Source: Candidatus Taylorbacteria bacterium RIFCSPHIGHO2_12_FULL_45_16 (GTDB taxonomy: Bacteria > Patescibacteriota > Minisyncoccia > Phycocordibacterales > PALSA-1337). Taken from it: a stretch of 64,000 nt of DNA. The position numbers were made by a program, and so were the translations under genes. This document shows, one piece after another, positions 7,165 through 60,181 of the stretch. The notes below the pieces were generated by a model that was not told where the DNA came from, did not search any database, and saw nothing but the letters and a program-made list of their open reading frames with translations. The DNA is taken from the NCBI GenBank assembly GCA_001821055.1, contig MHRT01000005.1, positions 156,378-220,377 of the forward strand, read 5' to 3'. Position 1 is the first letter of the stretch. The number at the start of each line of letters is the position of its first letter.

Positions 7165-8370
7165 ATGAATCTCAATGATCGAAAACTTCTTATATTTCTA
7201 GTCGGGCTTCCAGTGGTGATAATCGTCTTCTTTGTCGGAGTATATGTTGGAGAAGACAAGTCCTATGTCCCAAATGCCGACGTGGGCGATGTCAGCGCGA
7301 TTACATCCGAGCAATTTCAGCCATATTGGAAAGTCTGGCATATTCTGGATGAAAAATTCGTCGAGTCCAGCAGTACGACGCCGCAACAGAAGATTTATGG
7401 CTCGATTCAGGGTTTGGCTTCTTCATATGGTGATCCGTATACTGTTTTTTTCCCACCGGTAGAATCAAAAATGTTTGAAGAAGATATCTCAGGCAATTTT
7501 GAGGGTGTAGGCATGGAGATTGGTATCAAAGACAAACAACTCCAAGTCGTCAGTCCACTCAAGGGAAGTCCAGCCGAGCGTGCCGGAGTCAAAGCGGGCG
7601 ATTTTATCTTAAAAATTGATGACAAAAACACCATGGATATGTCGGTTGACGCAGCAGTCAAACTTATTCGCGGCAAAAGCGGAACGACAGTCAAAATACT
7701 GTTCTTGACAAAGGGTGTTTCTAGGCCCGTTGAGCGCTCCATTGTTCGTGATGTGATCAATATTCCGACCATTGAAACAAGTACAAAGCCTGGTGGCATA
7801 TTTGTTATTCGTCTTTATAGTTTTACGGCACAATCGCACAATCTGTTTCGTAACGCCCTTCGTGAATTTGTCCTGTCAGACAATCACAAACTGATTCTGG
7901 ATCTTCGTGGCAATCCTGGTGGATATCTCGACGCGGCTTGGGATATGGCCTCATGGTTCTTACCGACCGGTTCAGTCATCGTCACGGAAGATTTTGGCAA
8001 AAACGGCGGCGAACCGCGTGTATATAGAAGTAAAGGATATAATATATTTAACAACAATCTCAAAATGATTATTTTGGTGGATGGAGGATCGGCGTCCGCT
8101 TCAGAGATTCTAGCTGGGGCGCTCAAAGAAAATAACATCGCCAAGCTTGTTGGAACTAAAACTTTTGGTAAGGGTTCCGTCCAACAGTTGATTTCAATTA
8201 CCTCCGACACCTCACTCAAAGTTACGATAGCTCGCTGGCTTACACCAGGTGGACACAACCTTTCACATGATGGATTGGAACCAGATTACAAAATCGAAGT
8301 GACAGAAAAGGATATCGAGGACAAAAAGGACGTGGCTATGGACAAGGCGGTGGAATTATTGAATAAATAA
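7165..8370 (+). CDS. ctpA: Carboxyl-terminal processing protease (S41 family) with a PDZ domain
   Basis: N-terminal TM; PDZ-like GVKAGDFILKIDDKNTMDMS; S41 motifs LDLRGNPGGYLD and DGGSASASEILAGAL. Confidence 0.8.
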   Translation: MNLNDRKLLIFLVGLPVVIIVFFVGVYVGEDKSYVPNADVGDVSAITSEQFQPYWKVWHILDEKFVESSSTTPQQKIYGSIQGLASSYGDPYTVFFPPVESKMFEEDISGNFEGVGMEIGIKDKQLQVVSPLKGSPAERAGVKAGDFILKIDDKNTMDMSVDAAVKLIRGKSGTTVKILFLTKGVSRPVERSIVRDVINIPTIETSTKPGGIFVIRLYSFTAQSHNLFRNALREFVLSDNHKLILDLRGNPGGYLDAAWDMASWFLPTGSVIVTEDFGKNGGEPRVYRSKGYNIFNNNLKMIILVDGGSASASEILAGALKENNIAKLVGTKTFGKGSVQQLISITSDTSLKVTIARWLTPGGHNLSHDGLEPDYKIEVTEKDIEDKKDVAMDKAVELLNK

Positions 8371-42764: not shown

Positions 42765-42857
42765 GTAATTATTGGGCTAATGGTTAAATGCACGGATAAT
42801 TATATTATGTGATAAAAAAATGTCAAAATTTTGTAACATTACATGAGTCAAATTACT

Positions 42858-43028
42858 GGTAGCCCTACGGGGAATCGCCCGCGCCTCTCGCCTCGCCAGC
42901 TCGGCTCGGGCTGGGCACCGGCTCGCGGCCTCGCGTGCTCGCTCGACATCGCTCCGCCGTTCGATCCCCCAGTCGCAGGCACTCAAAGTGCCTGCTCGGT
43001 TTCTACTAATATTACCTACTTAAGTAAC
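42858..43028. repeat. Direct repeat DR-A (171 bp), beginning with the tRNA-Glu 3'-terminal 19-mer gtagccctacggggaatcg
   Basis: Matches 49179-49350 with about 2 substitutions and 1 indel. Contains the hairpin gcaggcactcaaagtgcctgc. Confidence 0.85.
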
Positions 43029-43036
43029 GTCACCGA

Positions 43037-43083
43037 GTAGGCAAATTGTAACATTCGCGCGAACTTTTTACGAGCAAAATTGA
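43037..43083. repeat. Inverted repeat IR-L (47 bp), partner at 49089-49135
   Basis: gtaggcaaattgtaacattcgcgcgaactttttacgagcaaaattga is the reverse complement of 49089-49135 with 1 mismatch. Confidence 0.85.
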
Positions 43084-43088
43084 AGTAC

Positions 43089-44126
43089 CGCCGCCCACAA
43101 TTTCACTGGGGGCGTGCGAGGGCGGCGGGACTACTGCCTCGGCGCTGAAAACTCGGGGGACTGGGGGCGAGTTTTCAGCGCCGTCCGCTTTTTTGGGGGC
43201 GGGGATGGTTTTAAATTTAAAATTAAAGCGCATACCATTGCTGATATGCGCTTTCCTTAGTCCACGTGACCGTGACCGAGTCTAGCAAAGCACGCTGAAC
43301 AGAACTCTAGCGCACTCGAATTAAAGAACAATGAAATTTTGGAGGGGGTTTTACCTCCCTCCCAGTACTCCACAGCAGACAAGAATGCGTTAGCGAGCTT
43401 GCACTCTACGCCACCGGAAAATGGTAACAATAAAAATTCTTAGACGAGCCCCTGTTTTATCAAGGGCTCGTCCCGTAGACTGCCGCAGTGCACTTGAGTC
43501 TAGCCAAGCAAACTACAGGACGCTTCGGCATGAACTGGTATGCAATACGACCAAATCTAACTGGAAATTTTTGCACGAGTGATTTTTAGGCCACTCGTGC
43601 TCCTTAGAGTGGCGTAGCCGAGTATACTGAAGGAAACCAGACTGCAGCGGACCTCAGAACGCGGGGCCAAACCGGAAAGAGTAACCGACCATACCCGAAG
43701 ATATGGTCGGTTCCGTAGACTGCCGCAGCAAACATTTGGCGCACTGCACGCAACGGCAGCGAAGCCCAGGCTGCGTCACTATCAAAATCATCTAAAAATA
43801 GATTAACATAGATATTATAAAAAGTAAAGCGTATACCATTTCTGATATACGCTTTCATTAGTGAACTGCACGACAGCACAGCCTACGATAGTAAGGCACA
43901 GCATAGTCGAGCGAACCACAAAATGACTACGAAATTATAGCTATAGCCAACTGGACCGAACCAAGATTACTAAACCCGAGAAATTTTTAGTAGGAGTGAT
44001 TTTTAGGCCACCCCTACTCCGTACTGAACCCTACTGCAGGAAGCGCTACGATGGAGAACTGCTCCAAGCGTCACAACTGCGTAGTGTCAGAAATTGTAGC
44101 CGACCCCACCCGAAGATGGGATCGGC
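43089..44126. repeat. ORF-free block of at least 10 stem-loops at ~83-165-nt spacing, in families sharing the loop and inner stem while the outer stem varies with compensatory changes
   Basis: H3 43225-43254 aaagcgcata-ccattgctg-atatgcgcttt pairs with H8 43826-43855 aaagcgtata-ccatttctg-atatacgcttt (c/g changed to t/a on both arms). H6 cacgagtg-atttttaggc-cactcgtg pairs with H9 gtaggagtg-atttttaggc-cacccctac. H7 ccgaccat-acccgaagat-atggtcgg pairs with H10 gccgacccc-acccgaagat-gggatcggc. Most hairpins are followed by CC-R-TA-N (ccgtagactgccgcag twice). Confidence 0.7.
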
Positions 44127-44200
44127 CCGTACTTTGCAGGAGGATACTGGAGCGAACGCGAGCTCAGCTAACTGAAGCATGCACCAGTGTACCCTGTAAA

Positions 44201-46018
44201 CTACTTTCCCTTTAACAGCTCCTCTGCTTGGGAAATGCACTCGTCAAATGTACGATCGTTGACGTATGCCTTTTCAAGCCATTTGGGAAGTGAAGCGTGG
44301 ACGAATCGCCGGAACTGTTGAGACATGAATATTGTCACTCCAAGGTCTTTGGTTGAACGAATGTTCCGACCGCGAACCTGAAGTGCCTGTATCATAACCC
44401 GCCAATTCCACAATGCCCAGCGACTACCACCGAATCGTTCCTCCTCAAACTGAGTGCCCGGATCGCTTGGATTCGGATACCCTGGACGCAGGAAGAAGAT
44501 GACTGGAGCAATCTGTTTGGGCAGATCGACCCCTTCGGCATAGTTTGAAGCTGTGCCGCAGAGGACATCGCCTTCACCATCACGGAAACGAACTGCCGCC
44601 TCCTTGGCGGTCACACCGTTCCCATAACTGATAGCTTTGAGGCCTTCCTCTTCCGCCATCATCATGAACTTATCGCGCTCGAGATTCGAGATGGTGACGA
44701 AGAGACTACGAATCCCTTTGTCTGCCAATCGCTTCGAGGCGCGAGCGACCATGCGAATACTTTTCGGAAGATCACGATTACTGCGTTCGTTCACTGCCAA
44801 GTTGGCTGTGTTCGTCGGCATGAAGAGCCGAGCATTGTCAGATGGAAAGTTGGATTCCAGACTGAATACCGGATTCCGTATCCCCGTCTCGTGCCCGAAT
44901 ACCTCCGGATCACCGATCGTAGCCGAGAGCGCCACCGTCGTCTTGCCCATGATCTTTTGGATAATTGGCGCGACGTAGTAACACTTGACCACCAGTCGAT
45001 ACTGCACATGCTCCTTTTCACCCTTTTCCTCCTTGTAATAGGCGTAGGTGTAGTTGAGCGCGTGGCGATTCTGATCAGGAAGTGAATACTCGAATGAGCG
45101 CAGGTAGCGGCGAAGGTCTTTCACCACAACCTCAAGCTTCTTCAGAGTCTCTCGCTTCTCCACGACATCAATGACTTTTTCCTGCACGGCCTTTTCAAGC
45201 TTGCGCAGGAGTCCTGATTGGTCGATGACCTCGAGTTTCTCCATGAGCGCACCAACCTCGCGTGCATTGAGCACGGTTTTCTGATGCGCCGGTTTCGACT
45301 TGATGATGTAGATCAACTTCTTGTAGAAGTCGTGAAGCAATTCTGCCTCCTCGGCGCCAATCTCTCGCAGAAGCTCCACCGACTTGCGCAAATGCCAATC
45401 GGTTATTTCATACGAGAGCGCGTTCCTGACCACTTCGGCCATGCGGTGTGCTTCGTCAATGACGAGCACTTCCGGCTGTTCCCATTCCCGGCTGAAAAGC
45501 TGGGTGAAGAGATAGAAAGCCATAGTGGAAAGAACAATGCCACCCTGTTTAGCCTCGAACTTCTGCTTCAAGTACGGACAAGGGATCGCTCCCTCGACAA
45601 AAGTCTTGCCTGTTGCTTGGTCCACTCTATGCGGGCAGTCTTTGAGCAGTGAGCATGGGATTTCATCCGCCATCGGCTGTTTGTCTGCCGGCAGTGTGTC
45701 CTTGAAGTAGTGACATTGATGCTCATTGCGCCCGAGAGCGACCTTGAGATCAGGAAACTCTTGGCGGATCTGCTCCATCAGAGTCTTGTTCGTTGTGATG
45801 AGGAAGAGCGGTTGTTTCCGCTTCAAATCCGCGGCCTTGAGTACGGTATACTCTACGGCAGTCTTGCCGCTTCCTGTGGGAGATTCGATCGTGACCGAGC
45901 CATTCTCGGAGATGATACGAAACATTTCCCGCTGACTTGCCCACGGTGCTCTGCGGAGAGCGTTTGTGGGGAATGTCTCTTCTAGCAGAGACAATTTTAG
46001 ATGTTCCAGATGTTGCAT
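44201..46018 (-). CDS. DinG/XPD(Rad3)-family Fe-S cluster DNA helicase
   Basis: Walker A ESPTGSGKTAVEY; four Cys between motifs I and II (HQCHYF, IPCSLLKDCPHR, IPCPYL); DEAH box VLVIDEAHRM; C-terminal helicase motifs (VLCGTASNYAEGVDLP…VIFFLRPGYP). The track ORF extends to 46087; the likely start is MQHLEHL at 46018. GC-rich codon usage. Confidence 0.7.
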   Translation of the reverse strand: MQHLEHLKLSLLEETFPTNALRRAPWASQREMFRIISENGSVTIESPTGSGKTAVEYTVLKAADLKRKQPLFLITTNKTLMEQIRQEFPDLKVALGRNEHQCHYFKDTLPADKQPMADEIPCSLLKDCPHRVDQATGKTFVEGAIPCPYLKQKFEAKQGGIVLSTMAFYLFTQLFSREWEQPEVLVIDEAHRMAEVVRNALSYEITDWHLRKSVELLREIGAEEAELLHDFYKKLIYIIKSKPAHQKTVLNAREVGALMEKLEVIDQSGLLRKLEKAVQEKVIDVVEKRETLKKLEVVVKDLRRYLRSFEYSLPDQNRHALNYTYAYYKEEKGEKEHVQYRLVVKCYYVAPIIQKIMGKTTVALSATIGDPEVFGHETGIRNPVFSLESNFPSDNARLFMPTNTANLAVNERSNRDLPKSIRMVARASKRLADKGIRSLFVTISNLERDKFMMMAEEEGLKAISYGNGVTAKEAAVRFRDGEGDVLCGTASNYAEGVDLPKQIAPVIFFLRPGYPNPSDPGTQFEEERFGGSRWALWNWRVMIQALQVRGRNIRSTKDLGVTIFMSQQFRRFVHASLPKWLEKAYVNDRTFDECISQAEELLKGK

Positions 46019-46032
46019 GTTTCCTTTCTTCT

Positions 46033-46377
46033 CTACTTTTTGTTGTCGATCCAAGCAACGAGCTTGAACCTGCCGATTCCTTCCCACTTGTCCGACCGAC
46101 CAAGCACGTTAGGTGCTCCTGTAGGAATAGTCGTGTTTTCCATGAGCTCGTATAGACGCCCGTGGAATATTGTTCTGAGTCCCGCTTTCACGGTCTCATT
46201 CGGCCTTCCCATAATCGGCAGATAGCGGAATGTTTTGTCCTGCGGATCATATTCGTTCTTTCGTTCAGGTATTAGATGAGCATATTTGTTCACACTCGTA
46301 TGATGTCCGCGTCTTGGTCTGTGATCCGACTTACGACGGAATCGTGGACCATAATGTGGATAGACTTTTTTACCCAT
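46033..46377 (-). CDS. Hypothetical basic protein (island cargo)
   Basis: 114-aa ORF with the SD-like AGGAGAA 9 nt upstream; Arg/His-rich N-terminus. No family recognised. Confidence 0.35.
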   Translation of the reverse strand: MGKKVYPHYGPRFRRKSDHRPRRGHHTSVNKYAHLIPERKNEYDPQDKTFRYLPIMGRPNETVKAGLRTIFHGRLYELMENTTIPTGAPNVLGRSDKWEGIGRFKLVAWIDNKK

Positions 46378-46666
46378 GAGAATATCCGTTCTCCTAAATT
46401 GTATTTGTTGTCAAAAAATCAAGCTTACTCGGCCTGATTCTGGCTTAGCTGTTAAGGGCTTTTCCATTTTTGATGCTAACATACAATAAGTAATCCGTCA
46501 ACTTGCGTAAAGGACCGTGTTCTGTTACGCTGTAATTACAAATGGCTTCGGCCTCGCCCCGCTCACGCGGGGAGGAAGAAATGAGCGATTATTCTATCAA
46601 ACGAATGATCGCTTGTTTTATTTTCTGAAACTGTTCCGAGTCAATGGTGGTGATTTTTTCCTGTAA

Positions 46667-46978
46667 TCACTTGGAGTCTACCAATCGAATTTGAGATAGA
46701 ATGATTTTTCGCGCTACCTTATCACCTAGATTAATATCCGCATAGTATTTTCCTTTTTTATTTTTTGTAGTAAGTGGCACAGATAAAAATACTTCTTTAT
46801 TGAAACCCTTGATGATTAGTACTGGGCGCGCAAAATCAAATCCTTTGCCATCCTGCTCAAATCCAACATTTTCTCCGAGAGAACACCACCAGATTTCTCG
46901 CTCATGATAAAATCGCCGCTCCTTTTCATTATGGATATTTTGCTTGAGTGTATGCCATTTTTGAAAATCTTTTTTCAT
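46667..46978 (-). CDS. MazF/PemK/Kid-like toxin-fold protein (mRNA interferase family); no adjacent antitoxin ORF found
   Basis: …REIWWCSLGENVGFEQDGKGFDFARPVLIIKG…FLSVPLTTKNKKGKYYADINLGDKVARKIILSQIRLVD matches MazF-like logic (RGDI…G.EQ.G.RP.LVL…P.T…….V…QIR.ID). 103 aa. Confidence 0.5.
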   Translation of the reverse strand: MKKDFQKWHTLKQNIHNEKERRFYHEREIWWCSLGENVGFEQDGKGFDFARPVLIIKGFNKEVFLSVPLTTKNKKGKYYADINLGDKVARKIILSQIRLVDSK

Positions 46979-47002
46979 CGTAGGATTTTAACATAAAAAA
47001 AT

Positions 47003-48030
47003 GGCAGGCACTCATTGAGAATGCCCGCCCCATAGAATAGGACTAGTCTGGATTAGTGCAGCCAACTCCGCGCAACTTCACGGCACTGTAGACTGAAATT
47101 TCAGACAAGGAACAAGATGGATAAATCTCGGCGGGGAATTTTCATTCCCCGCCCCGTAGACTGGTGAAGCGTGGTTTAGTACAGGCCAACAAGGAGAACA
47201 GAACTACACCTTACCGGATCAAATCACATGTTGAAACCATGACTCCTTCTGTAAAAAGTAAACGGTAGGAGAAAGTTGATGCTCTCTCCTACCCCTTGCG
47301 CAACCGCACCGCTCCCTAGAGTAGCCCACGGGAGGGCAGCTAACTCCAACAAACGATGGTGGAAATGTAAATTCTGCCGTGGAGTTTTACCTCCACGGCC
47401 CATACTCGAGTGCACAGCAGAGAGGAAAGACGCGCTAAGGCGAACTCCGGGCTGGTTTACACTAGAGAAAAGTTTGGCGGGAGTTTTACCTCCCAGCCCC
47501 ATACTTAGGCACGCGACCACTTCAGGCCACAGTGGGCTAGGCCAGGTCACACCACCCTAAATTTGTTTTAGTCTGAATTTAATATAACATACAAAGCTAA
47601 ATTATGCAAATTTAAAGCGCATACCATTGCTGATATGCGCTTTCCATAGAAGACCGATGTGAAGCTTGGCGCACCTCACTGAAGACAGCGGCACGCGACC
47701 AAGGGACACTACAACGGACTCGAAAAGAACAATTATGAAATTATGTCGCGGAGATATTTCACTCCGCGACCAATACTAAACGGCAGTGTAGTCTAGCCCA
47801 CTGCGGCTAACCGAGCTACACCGAGGTGTGCGCGAGACTGCCACAAAGAACAAACTGGAAAGTGAAAGAATGGCGGGGAATTTTCATTCCCCGCCCCGTA
47901 ACACAGATAACTAGAGTTGCAGAAAAGTCCACCACAGTCCGGGGAACAAAACCGCACCTTACGCGACCCTACGTTACGCAAAAAATCTGAAAATTATAGG
48001 CGGAGGTCAATCTTGCGATCAACCTCCGCC
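47003..48030. repeat. ORF-free block of degenerate ~100-138-bp tandem units (three intervals of exactly 127), each carrying one stem-loop
   Basis: Hairpin starts at 47003, 47130, 47264, 47376, 47476, 47614, 47745, 47872, 47999. ggcggggaat-tttc-attccccgcc is identical at 47130 and 47872. gccgtggag-ttttac-ctccacggc and ggcgggag-ttttac-ctcccagcc share loop and inner stem. aaagcgcata…tatgcgcttt at 47614 is a third copy of the array-1 H3 family. Units starting at 47130 and 47872 also share caccttacYg about 80 nt in. Confidence 0.7.
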
Positions 48031-48146
48031 CCACAGAGAAGCCCGGGACAGTTTAGTTCAGTATGCCCTAGTGAGCGACACGCGAGCTAAGACCAGATCA
48101 CCGAACTGCAAACCCTATTGACTCTGAAGGACGCGCGGACGGAAGG

Positions 48147-48839
48147 TCAGCTGGTCACGACTTCCGCGAGCCGATTGGCACCATTGCCCGACACCGGTGC
48201 TGACGCTTCGGTTTCCTCGGACTCTTCGGGTCTCGTGCCTTGCTTGTCCGATTCTTCCATCGTCACTTCCCATTTCTTGACCGCGAAACGGCCGAAGGGA
48301 CCGCCCTTGTTCGGACGGAAGTCACCGATGCCCGCTTTGGAGCCGGCGGTGTCCACAAGCTGGCGAATCAGAGTGTCTTTCGCTTGCTTGCCATCAACTT
48401 GGAAGGTCACATCGAGCGACCAATCCTTGAACTTCGGGCGGACGATGCAGACGGCGATGTCCATGCAGGTACCGCGACGCATGTCGGGTTCCCACGCAAT
48501 TTCGCCCTTGGCGTTGTTGTCCGCGAACGGCAGAAACTCTTCCTCAATGGAGAGGAACGAGTAGAGCAAGGTGCCCTCAGCAGTCGAAACCGCCTTCTTA
48601 CCGTCGAATTTGTGGAACCGACCAGCGGCTTTGATGGCCGCGAGCAGATTCAGTGTGGGAATGCCCATCGGCCCGGTGCTGTCGTTCTGGCGGTAGATCT
48701 TCGTAACAGCTTCCTGTTTTGGCGACAGATCTTTGGCCTTGGGCGCATGGACTTTGGTACGGAGACCTTCCAAGGTCGCCGGAGTCATGCGATTGATAAG
48801 GAGTGGGCTAATGCCCACGAGTAGTGCGCGTATTTTCAT
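48147..48839 (-). CDS. Hypothetical protein (island cargo), acidic C-terminal tail
   Basis: About 230-aa ORF; the likely start is MKIRALLVGISPLL at 48839, and the track ORF begins at 48884. GC-rich. No family recognised. Confidence 0.4.
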   Translation of the reverse strand: MKIRALLVGISPLLINRMTPATLEGLRTKVHAPKAKDLSPKQEAVTKIYRQNDSTGPMGIPTLNLLAAIKAAGRFHKFDGKKAVSTAEGTLLYSFLSIEEEFLPFADNNAKGEIAWEPDMRRGTCMDIAVCIVRPKFKDWSLDVTFQVDGKQAKDTLIRQLVDTAGSKAGIGDFRPNKGGPFGRFAVKKWEVTMEESDKQGTRPEESEETEASAPVSGNGANRLAEVVTS

Positions 48840-49088
48840 AACCTTACTTTCCGACTTTAGAGCAGAATCAATGATCCTGCTCAAGACGTTATTACCTTTG
48901 TTTTATGCTGTCAAAGAAAAGGCTTTGTTAAGCCCTATAAATAGGTCCACCCTAATTACAAAAAAAGGTTAGCACATTGATTTATTTGTGTCAATAGCAT
49001 GCTTGACAACTTTACTATTCTATTTGTATATATAAATACATATAAAGTACACTATTCACGGTCTAATGCGTGTCGGTACAGCGGGACA

Positions 49089-49135
49089 TCAATTTTGCTC
49101 GTAAAAAGTTCGCGTGAATGTTACAATTTGCCTAC
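49089..49135. repeat. Inverted repeat IR-R (partner of 43037-43083)
   Basis: tcaattttgctcgtaaaaagttcgcgtgaatgttacaatttgcctac. Confidence 0.85.
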
Positions 49136-49178
49136 CAACAAAAATGGCCTTCGCATTCGCTTAGGCTCATTTTTGTAT

Positions 49179-49350
49179 TGGTAGCCCTACGGGGAATCGC
49201 CCGCGCCTCTCGCCTCGCCAGCTCGGCTCGGGCTGGGCACCGGCTCGCGGCCTCGCGTGCTCGCTCGGCATCGCTCCGCCGTTCGATTCCCCAGTCGCAG
49301 GCACTCAAAGTGCCTGCTCGGTTTCTACTAATATTACCTACTTAAGTAAC
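49179..49350. repeat. Direct repeat DR-B (172 bp), immediately adjacent to tRNA-Glu
   Basis: See DR-A. Separated from the tRNA 3' end by only 10 nt (aacatctctc, 49351-49360). Confidence 0.85.
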
Positions 49351-49360
49351 ATCTCTCTCG

Positions 49361-49432
49361 TAGCCCTACGGGGAATCGAACCCCGATTACTGCCTTGAGA
49401 AGGCAATGTCCTAACCGTTAGACGATAGGGCC
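49361..49432 (-). tRNA. tRNA-Glu (anticodon CUC)
   Basis: Minus-strand read GGCCCTA-TC-GTCT-AACGGTTA-GGAC-A-TTGCC-TTCTCAA-GGCAG-TAAT-CGGGG-TTCGATT-CCCCG-TAGGGCT-A: cloverleaf with G1.U72, 7-nt T-loop TTCGATT, anticodon loop TTCTCAA. CCA not encoded. Confidence 0.8.
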
Positions 49433-49501: not shown

Positions 49502-50944
49502 CTACGCTTTCTCAAGCCATTCTTTCTCCTGACGGACCACCAACTGGTCGGCCTGATCAGGATATTTCATTAACATCTTTACAATGCGCTCCATCCGAAT
49601 CGACTGTGAACCCTTGATTAGAACTAGATCACCAGTTTTGATGATTGTTTTGAGAAATTCCCCAGCTTCAATAGAATTATCAAATGCGTGGACATTTCCA
49701 ACCACAAAACCATTCTTCACAGCCTCATCAGCCGTAGTGCGAGAGCGTTGTCCAACTGTTACAAGCACACTTGCCACACCGACAACTTCCCTACCGATCC
49801 GCCGGTGTTCTTCAGCCGAATAATGACCGAGTTCCATCATGTCACCCAGCGCAATGATTTTCGAACCATTAGTTTCCAATTCCTTCAAAGTATTCAAAGC
49901 TGAAATGACCGCATCTGGTGATGAATTGTAGCTATCATCGATCAACGTCGTATCGTAGGAGCCAGCAATTATATTCATTCTACTTTTCGGCGCTTCATAA
50001 TTATTGAGACCGTTAATGATTGCCGAGATCGGAACATCCTTTACTTTACCTACTGCGGCTGCTGCCAATAATGGATACATGTATGATCTACCAAGGAGGC
50101 CATTTATTGAAACTTGGGTACTCATTCCATTCAAATTCAATTTGAAAGTAAAGCCAGAAGGAATCTTTGTAGCCACAGCCAAACTGGTTGAATTCGAAGC
50201 TGAAACTGGAATAGAACTAGTCTGATTTGACTCTTCACTAGTCGAAATTGGCATAGAAATCGACTTTGAAATTGAAATTTGGGCTGTGGCCGAAACCGGC
50301 ACTTCTGCCAATTCATAAACAATTCTCTGTTCACTCCCCTTCACATCGGCCTTATTAATTGTTCCGAATGAAATGACTTTTACATCTTTATCCTTGACCA
50401 GTTCTCCAAGCAACAAAACTTTTTCATTATCAGCAAAAAGCACTAACGTCCCACCCTTTTTCACAGCCGTAGCAAGTGAAGCCTTCTCTTCAAAGACTTC
50501 TTTCGGTGATTTGAAAAACTCGACATGGACAGGGGTTGAACTGACTTGAGTGACTACGGCAATCTCCGGATGAAGCCATCTGGCTATTTTTCTAATATCA
50601 CCTGGATGATCAGCACCAATTTCCAAAACCAAACAGTCAGGATATTCATTCTTCCGGAAAATCAATCCGAGACCACATGAAATATTCCGAAGCCAACCCC
50701 ACAGACTATGCCAAGCATTTGGTACGCCGATAATAGTCAGGGGCAAACCGATTTCACTATTCAAACTCTTTTCACTTTTGCGAACATAATTACTCTGATT
50801 CTTGAGCACGCTATAAATAGCATCCTTGGTTGAAGTTTTCCCTACACTGCCAGTAACAGCTACTATAAAAGGCCTATACTTGGCCAGAATGAGTCGAGAT
50901 TCGAGAATCAGGATTGCTGCCAGGATTTTCTTGAAGAGAATCAT
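49502..50944 (-). CDS. murF: UDP-N-acetylmuramoyl-tripeptide--D-alanyl-D-alanine ligase with a Ser/Thr-rich low-complexity insertion
   Basis: VAVTGSVGKTSTKDAI P-loop and DDSYNSSPDAV (MurF-type). About 60-aa insert SATAQISISKSISMPISTSEESNQTSS…. Confidence 0.75.
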   Translation of the reverse strand: MILFKKILAAILILESRLILAKYRPFIVAVTGSVGKTSTKDAIYSVLKNQSNYVRKSEKSLNSEIGLPLTIIGVPNAWHSLWGWLRNISCGLGLIFRKNEYPDCLVLEIGADHPGDIRKIARWLHPEIAVVTQVSSTPVHVEFFKSPKEVFEEKASLATAVKKGGTLVLFADNEKVLLLGELVKDKDVKVISFGTINKADVKGSEQRIVYELAEVPVSATAQISISKSISMPISTSEESNQTSSIPVSASNSTSLAVATKIPSGFTFKLNLNGMSTQVSINGLLGRSYMYPLLAAAAVGKVKDVPISAIINGLNNYEAPKSRMNIIAGSYDTTLIDDSYNSSPDAVISALNTLKELETNGSKIIALGDMMELGHYSAEEHRRIGREVVGVASVLVTVGQRSRTTADEAVKNGFVVGNVHAFDNSIEAGEFLKTIIKTGDLVLIKGSQSIRMERIVKMLMKYPDQADQLVVRQEKEWLEKA

Positions 50945-51594
50945 TGTTTTAGTGATTTTATATCCCCAATCTTTTCACTTATTTTTTTAACAGATAAATT
51001 ATTAACCAACGATTCCATTTGAAAAATCGCTATTTTATTTAACTTCTGAAGCCGTATATTTTGTGAAATTTTCTGTGGAATAATGTGTTTCCTGATTGCA
51101 TCAGTATGAATTTTATAATTCACCTTGGCAAGTAGACGTTTCAAATCCCAACCAGTAGCTATTTTCTCGTTTTCTTCAATTTTTAGGCGTTGAAACTCTT
51201 TGATCAGATATAGTTCAAACTCGGGACTAATCCAGGAAGCAAATTCAAAAGCAATGTCCATATGGCCATAAGTTCCACCATATCGACCAGATTTTGAAAT
51301 AAGCCCGATTGCGGAGGTTTCATTTATCCATCTTTTTGGTGTTAAAGAAAAACTATTTAATCCCGCCTTATTTTTAAACCCATCGAATTCGATGGAATTA
51401 AAGGTTGGATTATGAATTCGTTCCCACAGACCAAGAAACTCTATTGTACTCCTTGTACGGATCCAGTTTTGCAAAATATAGTCAGTTTTTTCATTGTCTT
51501 TATAGCGAGCAATATCAGACAAAGAAATAAAGTCGCCTGCCAAATGAGACGTAAAGCCAATCGAGATATCCTGTACGACTATTTTTTTTATCAT
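50941..51594 (-). CDS. KilA-N domain-containing protein (phage/mobile-element-associated DNA-binding fold) embedded in the dcw cluster
   Basis: …RYGGTYGHMDIAFEFASWISPEFELYLIKEF… matches the KilA-N core (GTWVHPDLAIEFARWLSPEF). 217 aa with a C-terminal coiled-coil. Confidence 0.55.
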   Translation of the reverse strand: MIKKIVVQDISIGFTSHLAGDFISLSDIARYKDNEKTDYILQNWIRTRSTIEFLGLWERIHNPTFNSIEFDGFKNKAGLNSFSLTPKRWINETSAIGLISKSGRYGGTYGHMDIAFEFASWISPEFELYLIKEFQRLKIEENEKIATGWDLKRLLAKVNYKIHTDAIRKHIIPQKISQNIRLQKLNKIAIFQMESLVNNLSVKKISEKIGDIKSLKQ

Positions 51595-59444: not shown

Positions 59445-59934
59445 GTTTTATTTTGTACATTCACATGTCTCGCACTTTTTGCCCGAATGAGCTACGTGCC
59501 CGCAAGAGGAACATACCGGTGGTACATCTGCCATAATTTTATAATTGATTAAGGCTGATAAAACGACCTTTGCGAAGTGACATTATAGCACAGAAATTTC
59601 TTTTGGCGTATCTAAACGTGAGTTCGTCGACTATGCCGCTGACAAAGCTGAAGTACGTTGTTAATTAGGTAAACGATATGAAGTCGTTTTTACAATACCT
59701 CTTTTATGATCTTTTATCCTATTATTCAAATCGCCAGATGATCCAACATAGAATGAACCATCCTTTTTGCATTTCAATATGTACACAAAATATGACATAA
59801 ATTTATTGTATTGAATGTCCTGCTACGCTAAGGCTTCGCAGAACACTGCTTCGCTCTAGGTAATAGAAGTTATAGTTGACCTAACACAGTGCTTTGCACT
59901 GCGTAGCTCCTTGTGATCAACAAGGAGCGAAGCA

Positions 59935-59955
59935 GTGGACCCGAGAGGATTCGAA
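59935..59955 (-). repeat. Orphan duplicate of the 3' end of tRNA-Ala(UGC) (T-loop plus acceptor 3' strand), 152 bp from the intact tRNA
   Basis: gtggacccgagaggattcgaa is identical to 60107-60127. A further ttcgaatcctct copy lies at about 60016-60027. Confidence 0.7.
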
Positions 59956-60075
59956 GCTTACAGCTTCGGTACAGGTTTCGCATTTTCTCGAAGCAAAGCT
60001 TCTCGAAAATATGCTCAACCTTTTCGAATCCTCTACGCAAGGTGCAAAAGCACCTTGCTCGAGTCCTCTCAAACC

Positions 60076-60098
60076 AAAAACCGCTCAATGCGGTTTTT
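60076..60098 (-). terminator. Terminator hairpin immediately downstream of tRNA-Ala(UGC)
   Basis: aaaaaccgctcaatgcggttttt. Confidence 0.55.
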
Positions 60099-60106
60099 GT
60101 GTTTTC

Positions 60107-60181
60107 GGTGGACCCGAGAGGATTCGAACCTCCGACCTTTGCTTTGCAAAAGCACTGCTCTACCAACTGAGCTACGGGCCC
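60107..60181 (-). tRNA. tRNA-Ala (anticodon UGC), G3.U70 present, CC of the CCA encoded
   Basis: GGGCCCG-TA-GCTC-AGTTGGTA-GAGC-A-GTGCT-TTTGCAA-AGCAA-AGGTC-GGAGG-TTCGAAT-CCTCT-CGGGTCC-A-CC. Confidence 0.8.

Follow-up and report, generated by a model that had tools for sequence, protein, structure and literature searches.

Downstream of a tRNA-Glu(CTC) gene in a 64,000-nt stretch of contig MHRT01000005.1 from Candidatus Taylorbacteria bacterium RIFCSPHIGHO2_12_FULL_45_16 (hereafter the window), a 172-nt repeat, a hairpin and an inverted repeat follow one another at a single junction. We judge with moderate confidence that this junction is the tRNA-proximal border of a 6.3-kb island without a recombinase, inserted by a single crossover of the Campbell type into a tRNA-linked element, and that elements of this kind, here called tRNA-downstream elements (TDEs), act as landing pads. 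The features that an original prediction had picked out from the letters of the sequence are real and lie far beyond chance. Coordinates are positions in the window unless another locus is named. The tRNA sense is the minus strand, and the order in that sense is tRNA, spacer, repeat, hairpin and inverted repeat (Table 1).

Direct repeats and island-free alleles at tRNA-Glu

The tRNA-Glu(CTC) gene encodes no CCA, and its final 19 nt (49360-49378) are the first of three copies of the 19-mer CGATTCCCCGTAGGGCTAC, all in one orientation. Copy 2 closes the tRNA-proximal direct repeat, DR-B (49181-49199), copy 3 closes the distal direct repeat, DR-A (42859-42877), and CCA comes next in both. An intact tRNA at one border and a displaced, directly oriented 3' fragment at the other is the layout of a tRNA island. 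The prediction that a 172-bp repeat sits in tandem at the tRNA was borne out, as DR-B recurs as DR-A in a block of 172 nt that is exact apart from two internal mismatches (42946 and 42966). The spacer between tRNA and repeat is also there, at 9 nt rather than the 10 nt given before, and, in agreement with the earlier failure to fold the repeat into a cloverleaf, neither ARAGORN nor Rfam calls a tRNA in it. Within the window the 172-nt sequence is confined to the tRNA-Glu locus and its structural relatives are all tRNA-linked, so it does not look like a widespread repeat unrelated to tRNA genes. Two open reading frames (ORFs) of 75 and 65 aa that run across the repeats were judged spurious, being GC-rich non-coding sequence with starts outside the repeat and differing between the copies.

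The island together with one repeat copy forms a unit of 6,322 bp, and this unit is a true presence/absence polymorphism in one natural population. By exact protein matches to deposited assemblies and contigs, the host is a CPR (candidate phyla radiation) bacterium living in the Rifle aquifer. Contig L010 (ENA ERZ27254737, 52.6 kb) is island-free and reads from the 3' half of tRNA-Glu through the spacer and a single element to Cyt-b5, and the sample from which it comes also yields an island-carrying contig. Its identity to the window is 100% both along 5,943 bp towards Cyt-b5 and, at the other end, across the tRNA and spacer. Contig L014 (JGI 3300002105), from a second sample, is likewise island-free and carries the Mur-ligase gene, tRNA-Glu, one repeat copy and the Cyt-b5 gene. 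Both contigs present a precise empty site, from which exactly the island and one repeat are missing, not the segment bounded by the inverted repeats.

Mis-joining or collapse of the metagenome assemblies could produce both a repeat and an apparent empty site. Several contigs do end at the repeats, and L014 could be a collapsed assembly, since it reads N at exactly the two positions at which the copies differ; the bases of L010 at these positions are defined. Against an artefact, the occupied layout is alike in NCBI (GCA_001821115.1, GCA_001822595.1), JGI and ENA assemblies and is carried by most contigs, the repeat copies are set apart by fixed differences and by their flanks, and in L010 the defined DR-A alleles and the tRNA side to which they connect are less than a k-mer (k = 141) apart. 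We consider this explanation extremely improbable.

The alleles of L010 locate the exchange. L010 has the DR-A bases at both internal differences and the proximal-side base in the arm GTAACAT beside the spacer. This result indicates that the exchange took place between 42966 and 43028, whether the island was gained or lost. This places it within the 62 nt of the repeat closest to the tRNA, with the 19-mer at the other end. Within these 62 nt is a 7-8-7 dyad, ATATTAC-CTACTTAA-GTAACAT. The DR-A counterpart of the outer arm reads GTAACGT (43022-43028+1), and identity between the copies stops within this outer arm. The dyad does not form a stable hairpin (z = 0.1). GTAACAT occurs eight times in the window, four of them at border features, namely the host flank at 42833, both inverted repeats and the dyad. 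Judged from the sequence, this distribution fits a site-specific recombinase that would use the dyad as its core and would have accessory sites within the inverted repeats.

These observations can be put together in the following way. The resident state would be one copy of the 172-nt structured element directly after tRNA-Glu(CTC). A circular form of the island would carry its own element copy, in the order IR-L (left inverted repeat), 8 nt (TCGGTGAC), element, linker hairpin and IR-R (right inverted repeat). A single reciprocal crossover between the circle copy and the resident copy, within the 62 nt that hold the dyad ATATTAC-N8-GTAACAT, would duplicate the element around the island, and the reverse crossover would delete the island and leave one copy behind. 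The agent could be a site-specific recombinase acting in trans or general homologous recombination. TDEs at tRNA genes of the candidate phyla radiation (CPR) would, on this proposal, be insertions that fold into a branched structure and act as landing pads for cargo.

The three 19-mers could also be explained by a more classical route, in which att sites of tyrosine integrases accreted in tandem through two successive integrations at tRNA-Glu, first of a small element (cores 1 and 2) and then of the island (cores 2 and 3). The 153-nt GC-rich stretch would then be the P arm of one element family, and the integrase would have been lost or would act in trans. Elements that integrate at tRNA genes are flanked by partial tRNAs, and later arrivals displace older ones outward (PMC4383910; bioRxiv 10.1101/2020.12.28.424599). 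In keeping with this route, three direct copies of the 19-mer mark the borders, the block of identity reaches from the T-loop to the 3' end, as is typical of integration at tRNA genes (PMC4383910; bioRxiv 10.1101/2020.12.28.424599), and CCA follows copies 2 and 3, not the gene copy, as if these were displaced original ends. As proof of displaced ends the CCA argument is weak, given that 5 of 27 CPR tRNA genes encode CCA and that other TDEs read CCT, CTG, CAA or TAC at this place. If excision had occurred at the 19-mer, then the DR-B internal alleles would have been left, whereas L010 has those of DR-A. The identity spans 172 nt and reaches beyond the tRNA-derived part, so that neither identity nor crossover is confined to the tRNA-derived segment; no integrase gene lies inside the island; and the proximal 'element' would measure a mere 179 bp. 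The classical model accounts for the three tRNA-end copies, not for the 172-nt identity or the L010 alleles, and we regard it as doubtful.

A tRNA-linked island with att-like repeats is of a kind already known. Like the tRNA islands and prophages of tyrosine integrases (Islander, PMC4383910), the locus has an intact tRNA at one end and a direct 3' fragment at the far end, an inserted block whose composition is unlike that of the host, and an empty site in the population. Unlike those islands, it has no integrase, a 172-nt repeat of which only 19-20 nt are tRNA-derived, three copies of the tRNA end, a crossover that we infer to lie outside the tRNA-derived part, and 55-nt inverted repeats just inside the direct repeats. 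The unusual features here are that no recombinase was found, that the repeat is long and structured and holds the tRNA end in both sense and antisense, and that such elements recur at many tRNA genes of CPR bacteria.

Inverted repeats and searches for a recombinase

The inverted repeats just inside the direct repeats, IR-L and IR-R, match over 55 nt with 3 mismatches (95% identity). They had been described as 47 bp long; they are indeed present, with 1 mismatch over those 47 nt, and extend beyond that length. The motif TTGTAACATT occurs three times in the window against 0.19 expected, once in each arm and once in the host flank, where the original prediction had placed a copy just outside DR-A. 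The Cyt-b5-like gene has a perfect sigma-70 promoter, TTGACA-16-TATAAT, on the minus strand (42826 to 42799), which starts 5 nt from the flank copy of TTGTAACATT.

Such repeats could be the ends of a transposon that inserted beside or into a prior tandem pair of elements, in which case the direct repeats would be irrelevant to movement. The length and 95% identity of the terminal inverted repeats speak for this, as do the copies of TTGTAACATT, one per arm and one in the flanking host DNA, some transposases being known to favour targets that resemble their own ends. If the island had moved in this way, a short target duplication would be looked for at the arms, and there is none (CACCGA versus CAACAA). 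There is also no transposase and no other copy: the inverted-repeat 20-mer occurs elsewhere only as a chance match. The empty alleles lack the island and one repeat, not an inverted-repeat-bounded segment. A transposon is in our view highly unlikely.

The 43-nt linker between repeat and inverted repeat had been noted as a hairpin. This was confirmed by folding, with -19.1 kcal/mol, z = -6.45 and none of 200 shuffles equally stable, and the structure extends beyond the stem noted before. In addition to the pairing of ACAAAAATG with CATTTTTGT, a second one joins the copied tRNA end GCTACCAA to TTGGTAGGC in the inverted-repeat tip.

No recombinase or transposase domain was found in the four larger island ORFs (Pfam, NCBIfam, PADLOC), in a 108-aa ORF of the non-coding block and seven ORFs elsewhere in the window (Pfam), or on record for genes within 10 kb (precomputed Pfam). 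A regular expression for box II of tyrosine recombinases matched none of the window ORFs of at least 120 aa. A 303-aa ORF beside the tRNA cluster was considered as a recombinase and ruled out in the Pfam scan. Since no recombinase is encoded in it, the island is non-autonomous. In a metagenome scan the query was the inverted-repeat 20-mer rather than the 153-nt arm, and it gave one match, in L097, a 22-nt chance match in a coding region. Viral scans with the inverted repeat, two arm pieces and the type-1 motif of the TDEs (see below) gave nothing or a chance match.

Cis-mobilizable elements are non-autonomous integrative elements. Two of their marks, att-like repeats and the lack of recombination genes, are present here; as to the third, mobilisation by a related autonomous element, no helper or autonomous relative was found in the genome, viral and metagenome scans. 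Tandem arrays at one att site have been described for SGI1 (PMC2297512) and as stacked tycheposons with partial tRNAs (bioRxiv 10.1101/2020.12.28.424599). The locus resembles these non-autonomous or tandem arrays in having att-like repeats around cargo without recombination genes of its own, and partial tRNAs from what would be successive events. It differs from them in that no helper or recombinase was identified and in that the small proximal unit is a conserved structured element of 150-230 nt that recurs at many tRNAs and not what remains of a larger one.

The symmetric elements at the borders had been taken for arm and core sites of a recombinase. In favour of this are a border of inserted DNA at the tRNA, the tRNA 3' end at the borders, an island-free allele and GTAACAT at all four borders. 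The claim is weakened in that no recombinase was found, the empty site retains one 172-nt copy, tRNAs without an island bear like elements, and the crossover is not in the 19-mer.

tRNA-downstream elements in CPR bacteria

We searched the 27 distinct tRNA genes in the fetched CPR loci for a copy of their own 3' end within 450 nt. Seven were followed, 140-230 nt away, by a copy of their own last 13-21 nt: Glu and Ala(TGC) in the window, Ser and Lys in L030, Leu and Tyr in L021, and Glu(CTC) in L037. No such copy was found after any of 16 tRNAs in non-CPR and viral loci. All seven elements, 150-230 nt long, carry an exact 9-12-nt antisense copy of the T-arm of their own tRNA, at positions 42-76, as well as the 13-21-nt sense copy. 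The order of parts is the same throughout, with a hairpin or dyad directly after the tRNA, then a second hairpin (hp2), the antisense T-arm copy, a variable domain and the sense copy; some elements have an added stretch, complementary to the acceptor 3' strand, between the first hairpin or dyad and hp2. The same tRNA may have or lack an element, with tRNA-Ser and tRNA-Lys bearing one in L030 and none in L035 or L024.

In the tRNA-Glu element, hp2 is the perfect 8-bp hairpin gcaggcac-N5-gtgcctgc that had been noted before, and in the window it occurs only in the two repeat copies (DNA fold z = -4.6). The suggestion that its loop is anticodon-like did not hold up: the hairpin is conserved in structure across the element family, with loops of 4-5 nt, and its equivalents in other TDEs carry compensatory changes. 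In the fold the antisense T-arm copy (GGGGAATCGAAC, 49281-49292) also pairs with CGAUUCCCC, the sense copy that closes the element on its 3' side. Over the 191-nt repeat region, the fold has z of about -4.5 as RNA and -4.2 as DNA.

The second element of the window, after tRNA-Ala(TGC), closes with 21 nt copied from the tRNA-Ala 3' end and folds with -83.6 kcal/mol at 45% GC. The Ala, Ser and Leu elements have sequence in common beyond their tRNA-derived parts (GCGTAGRGGATTCGAAAAGGTT; AACCTGTACYGAARCTGTAAG), and a covariance model of this type 1, R1, was built from the three. R1 finds the Lys element with E = 3e-12. Across these four members both sides change in 17 of 33 pairs while 92.9% of the cells stay paired, a level that none of 500 shuffles reached and to which no slid register came close. 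For the Glu and Ala elements Rfam yields no family, not even with thresholds relaxed to E <= 1 and E <= 10, where tRNAs alone are returned, and the class is not described in Rfam or in literature searches covering open-access text.

Two other candidates for such sequences were set aside. A group I intron in the tRNA received no Rfam intron match, and the known tRNA introns of Patescibacteria sit in the anticodon loop at position 35/36 (bioRxiv 10.1101/2025.07.03.662931), not in the T-arm. The likeness of a GC-rich block upstream of the L018 island to the 172-nt element is not significant, as 24 of 500 shuffles aligned locally as well. As a separate observation, two tRNA-Lys-TTT genes and a Gln-TTG gene in CPR are preceded by 17-57-nt partial copies of their own 5' part (L024 4691-4861; L030 1440-1530, minus; L025 2819-2940, minus). 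A conserved anticodon-arm-like stretch comes next in the two Lys cases, and in L025 the inverted repeat CCCCGTCACTAAG / CTTAGTGACGGGG brackets the intact tRNA.

Do these elements act as RNA or as DNA? In six of six elements the strand in tRNA sense forms the more stable fold of the two, and both differences between DR-A and DR-B give G.U pairs on the tRNA-sense strand and A.C mismatches on the other. The strand bias, the neutrality of the G.U changes and the conserved junction nucleotides fit an RNA or a folded DNA strand alike. If the 172-nt element and its relatives were genes for structured RNAs, co-transcribed with the tRNA or processed like it and with no role as recombination sites, then stem 1 and stem 3 would imitate the acceptor/T helix, and the copies flanking the island would be ordinary homology for RecA-type recombination. 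The compensatory changes in five helices agree with this, as do the conserved junction nucleotides (GCGUAG, GAAAAGG, CUGUAAG), the better folding of the sense strand in all six elements, the sense-strand neutrality of the DR-A/DR-B differences and the high stability (z = -4.5; -84 kcal/mol for 175 nt at 45% GC). Other observations do not agree with it. No promoter lies between tRNA and element, and a terminator-like hairpin opens most elements. The T-loop bases are paired, so that a TDE is not the usual tRNA mimic. Identity to the adjacent tRNA is unneeded for RNA function, no Rfam family matches, and the same isoacceptor occurs with and without an element across genomes, a difference which suggests insertions. 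We think the RNA explanation unlikely, though it deserves appreciable weight.

As DNA, the elements may be compared with single-stranded recombination substrates. The hairpin of CTX-phi attP(+) rebuilds a dif-like duplex for XerCD (PMC3442271). Like attP(+) and integron attC (PMC4792948), the elements hold inverted and direct copies of the target, about 100 nt apart, that refold to a double-stranded target; structure is kept over sequence and one strand folds better, with covariation in type 1 and the strand preference in 6/6, and with the fold alone for the Glu element. They are unlike attC and attP(+) in that the target is the T-arm/acceptor end of a tRNA and not dif or attI, in that no GTTRRRY-type core lies at the borders, and in that they could equally be RNAs. 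The attC R' core GTTRRRY is not matched by the border, where GAT is followed by GTTACTT, no 28-bp dif-like site is evident, and an enzyme to match, IntI or Xer, was not found. A tentative extension, to which we attach low confidence, is that TDEs may be a new portable attachment module, in which the folded strand would rebuild the T-arm/acceptor end of the target tRNA gene as a recombination substrate and would let units with and without cargo enter and leave tRNA loci without a recombinase of their own; the cargo of the present island might then be a minimal RNA-guided system of separately terminated hairpin RNAs.

Several observations weigh against our reading of the junction as a Campbell-type insertion into a TDE. 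A circular junction or free form of the island was not found in the metagenome scan with the inverted-repeat 20-mer or in the viral scans. Plain homologous recombination, with two internal differences between the copies, would also hit the 62-nt interval about one third of the time, and the alleles alone therefore do not single out site-specific action at the dyad; of the two island-free contigs, L014 reads N at both of the informative positions. R1 does not detect the 172-nt Glu element at E <= 1, and an alignment of the window Glu, L037 Glu and L021 Tyr elements is poor and gives no convincing common structure. The place of the Glu element in the family accordingly rests on layout, not on scored homology, although it may be homologous to the type-1 members and not just alike in layout. 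It has 62% GC overall and about 70% centrally, against 38-47% in other elements, a composition that suits arrival with the island better than descent from the host. Finally, long flanking repeats are present in none of about 24 related CPR modules, and the island of the window alone has them.

Island cargo and its relatives

The genes of the island are listed in Table 1. The Cas7-like protein probably starts at the methionine of MKIRALL near 48794. Its predicted structure (AF2, pLDDT 83.6) has subunits of type VII Cas7 and of Csm3 as the best Foldseek matches in the PDB (E = 2e-6, probability 1.0, TM 0.4-0.5). The helicase is closest to the DinG associated with type IV-A CRISPR, matching PADLOC typeIV_DinG over its full length (E = 4.9e-43), and scores far below the NCBIfam Csf4 cut-off. 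The island also encodes a 114-aa protein. Its two non-coding blocks hold about 17 small units in all, some 100-130 nt apart, each built of a variable stretch of 60-110 nt, TAYGG, a hairpin with a unit-specific stem that shows compensatory changes, and AAATTTC. Many of the units score as intrinsic terminators, and some hairpins recur exactly, GGCGGGGAAT.. at 47130 and 47872 and AAAGCGCATA.. at 43225 and 47614.

Like type IV-A CRISPR-Cas, the cargo sets a type-IV-like DinG helicase beside a Cas7-like RAMP protein and many small hairpin units. Unlike type IV-A, it has no array of identical repeats, no recognised Cas5, Cas6 or Cas8, and a Cas7-like protein from the phage family phrog_4652. No other Cas protein was found by PADLOC or NCBIfam, and the locus does not qualify as type IV CRISPR-Cas.

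In about 22 CPR/DPANN loci (window 44201-48884; L018-L043, L053, L069, L079) a Cas7-like gene is paired with a helicase gene at a distance of 1-3 kb. No locus of a non-CPR genome has the pair, the helicase being absent there, and of 80 viral loci just 2 match the helicase at all, and then weakly. The pair may be an undescribed minimal RNA-guided or defence module. The nearest relatives of the island (L017, L018; 81-84% protein identity) lie in other genomic contexts, with no tRNA, and it is because close relatives occupy other contexts that we take the cargo to move. The module is found near TDEs in two further loci. In L030 a distance of 1.4 kb separates it from the end of the element after tRNA-Ser, and in L037, from Saccharibacteria, tRNA-Glu(CTC) is followed by a 166-nt element of like layout and then by a homologous Cas7-like/helicase island. 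A third 19-mer was sought at the far end of the L037 island and is absent; only a 40-nt terminator-like palindrome is repeated, at 8146 and 13923.

Around the Cas7-like and helicase genes of L037 (8560-12470) we noted at least five small units, each with a TTGACA/TATAAT promoter and a terminator to itself and with a conserved hairpin GACAAGG-N8-CCTTGTC; they resemble the small units of the window island. The phrog_4652 family is common in large viral contigs of IMG/VR (L099-L178, 5-138 kb) from many environments, at 26-37% identity to the window protein, and the DinG-like helicase is absent from almost all of these contigs. A phage protein family thus seems to have given rise to the CPR branch as a separate offshoot carried on chromosomes. 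On the host side of the junction, two genes upstream of tRNA-Glu, a KilA-N domain protein (50941-51594, minus) overlaps the Mur-ligase gene by 4 nt and may be what is left of another mobile element within this cluster of cell-wall genes.

Table 1. Features of the tRNA-Glu junction, the island and the second element in the window
Feature	Position	Strand	Details
tRNA-Glu(CTC) gene	49360..49432	-	ARAGORN; Rfam RF00005, 62.1 bits
Spacer, 9 nt, between tRNA-Glu and repeat	49351..49359	-	GAGAGAGAT (tRNA sense); register comparison
DR-B, tRNA-proximal direct repeat	49179..49350	-	172-nt TDE
7-8-7 dyad	49331..49352		ATATTAC-CTACTTAA-GTAACAT; tRNA-proximal repeat edge, inside the 62-nt crossover interval
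Hairpin hp2	49297..49317	-	GCAGGCAC-UUUGA-GUGCCUGC; 4 nt upstream of antisense T-arm copy
Antisense tRNA-Glu T-arm copy	49281..49292	-	GGGGAAUCGAAC (tRNA sense); 12-nt exact match, reverse complement of tRNA 3' region
Linker hairpin, terminator-like	49129..49188	-	GCUACCAA (tRNA-end copy) and ACAAAAAUG pair with CAUUUUUGU and UUGGUAGGC (IR-R tip), then T-run
IR-R, right arm of inverted repeat	49081..49135		Contains AATGTTACAA
Island body	43029..49178	-	6,150 bp; 50-59% GC versus about 42% in host flanks
IR-L, left arm of inverted repeat	43037..43091		Contains TTGTAACATT
DR-A, distal direct repeat	42857..43028	-	172 nt
TTGTAACATT in host flank	42831..42840	+	17 nt outside DR-A, directly upstream of Cyt-b5 promoter -35 box
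Cas7/Csm3-like RAMP protein	48147..48884	-	phrog_4652 family, 245 aa; PHROGs E = 6e-18
Non-coding block	46979..48146	-	About 9 small units
MazF/PemK-like toxin	46667..46978	-	Pfam PF02452, E = 4e-7
DinG/XPD-type helicase	44201..46087	-	628 aa (605 aa by gene callers); Pfam Helicase_C_2, DEAD, DEAD_2
Second non-coding block	43092..44200	-	About 9 like units
Second window TDE, 175 nt	59932..60106	-	After tRNA-Ala(TGC) 60107-60181; no island; type-1 model founder, 149.9 bits

Mobile DNA in CPR/Patescibacteria is poorly described, and here a small defence-like island is caught both occupied and empty in one population. The TDE layout is present at about a quarter of the sampled CPR tRNA genes, and the element at tRNA-Glu is not a one-off arm site. 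If TDEs are RNAs, they would be an undescribed class of tRNA-linked RNA. If they are recombination substrates, they would explain how cargo is exchanged at tRNA loci among these tiny genomes.

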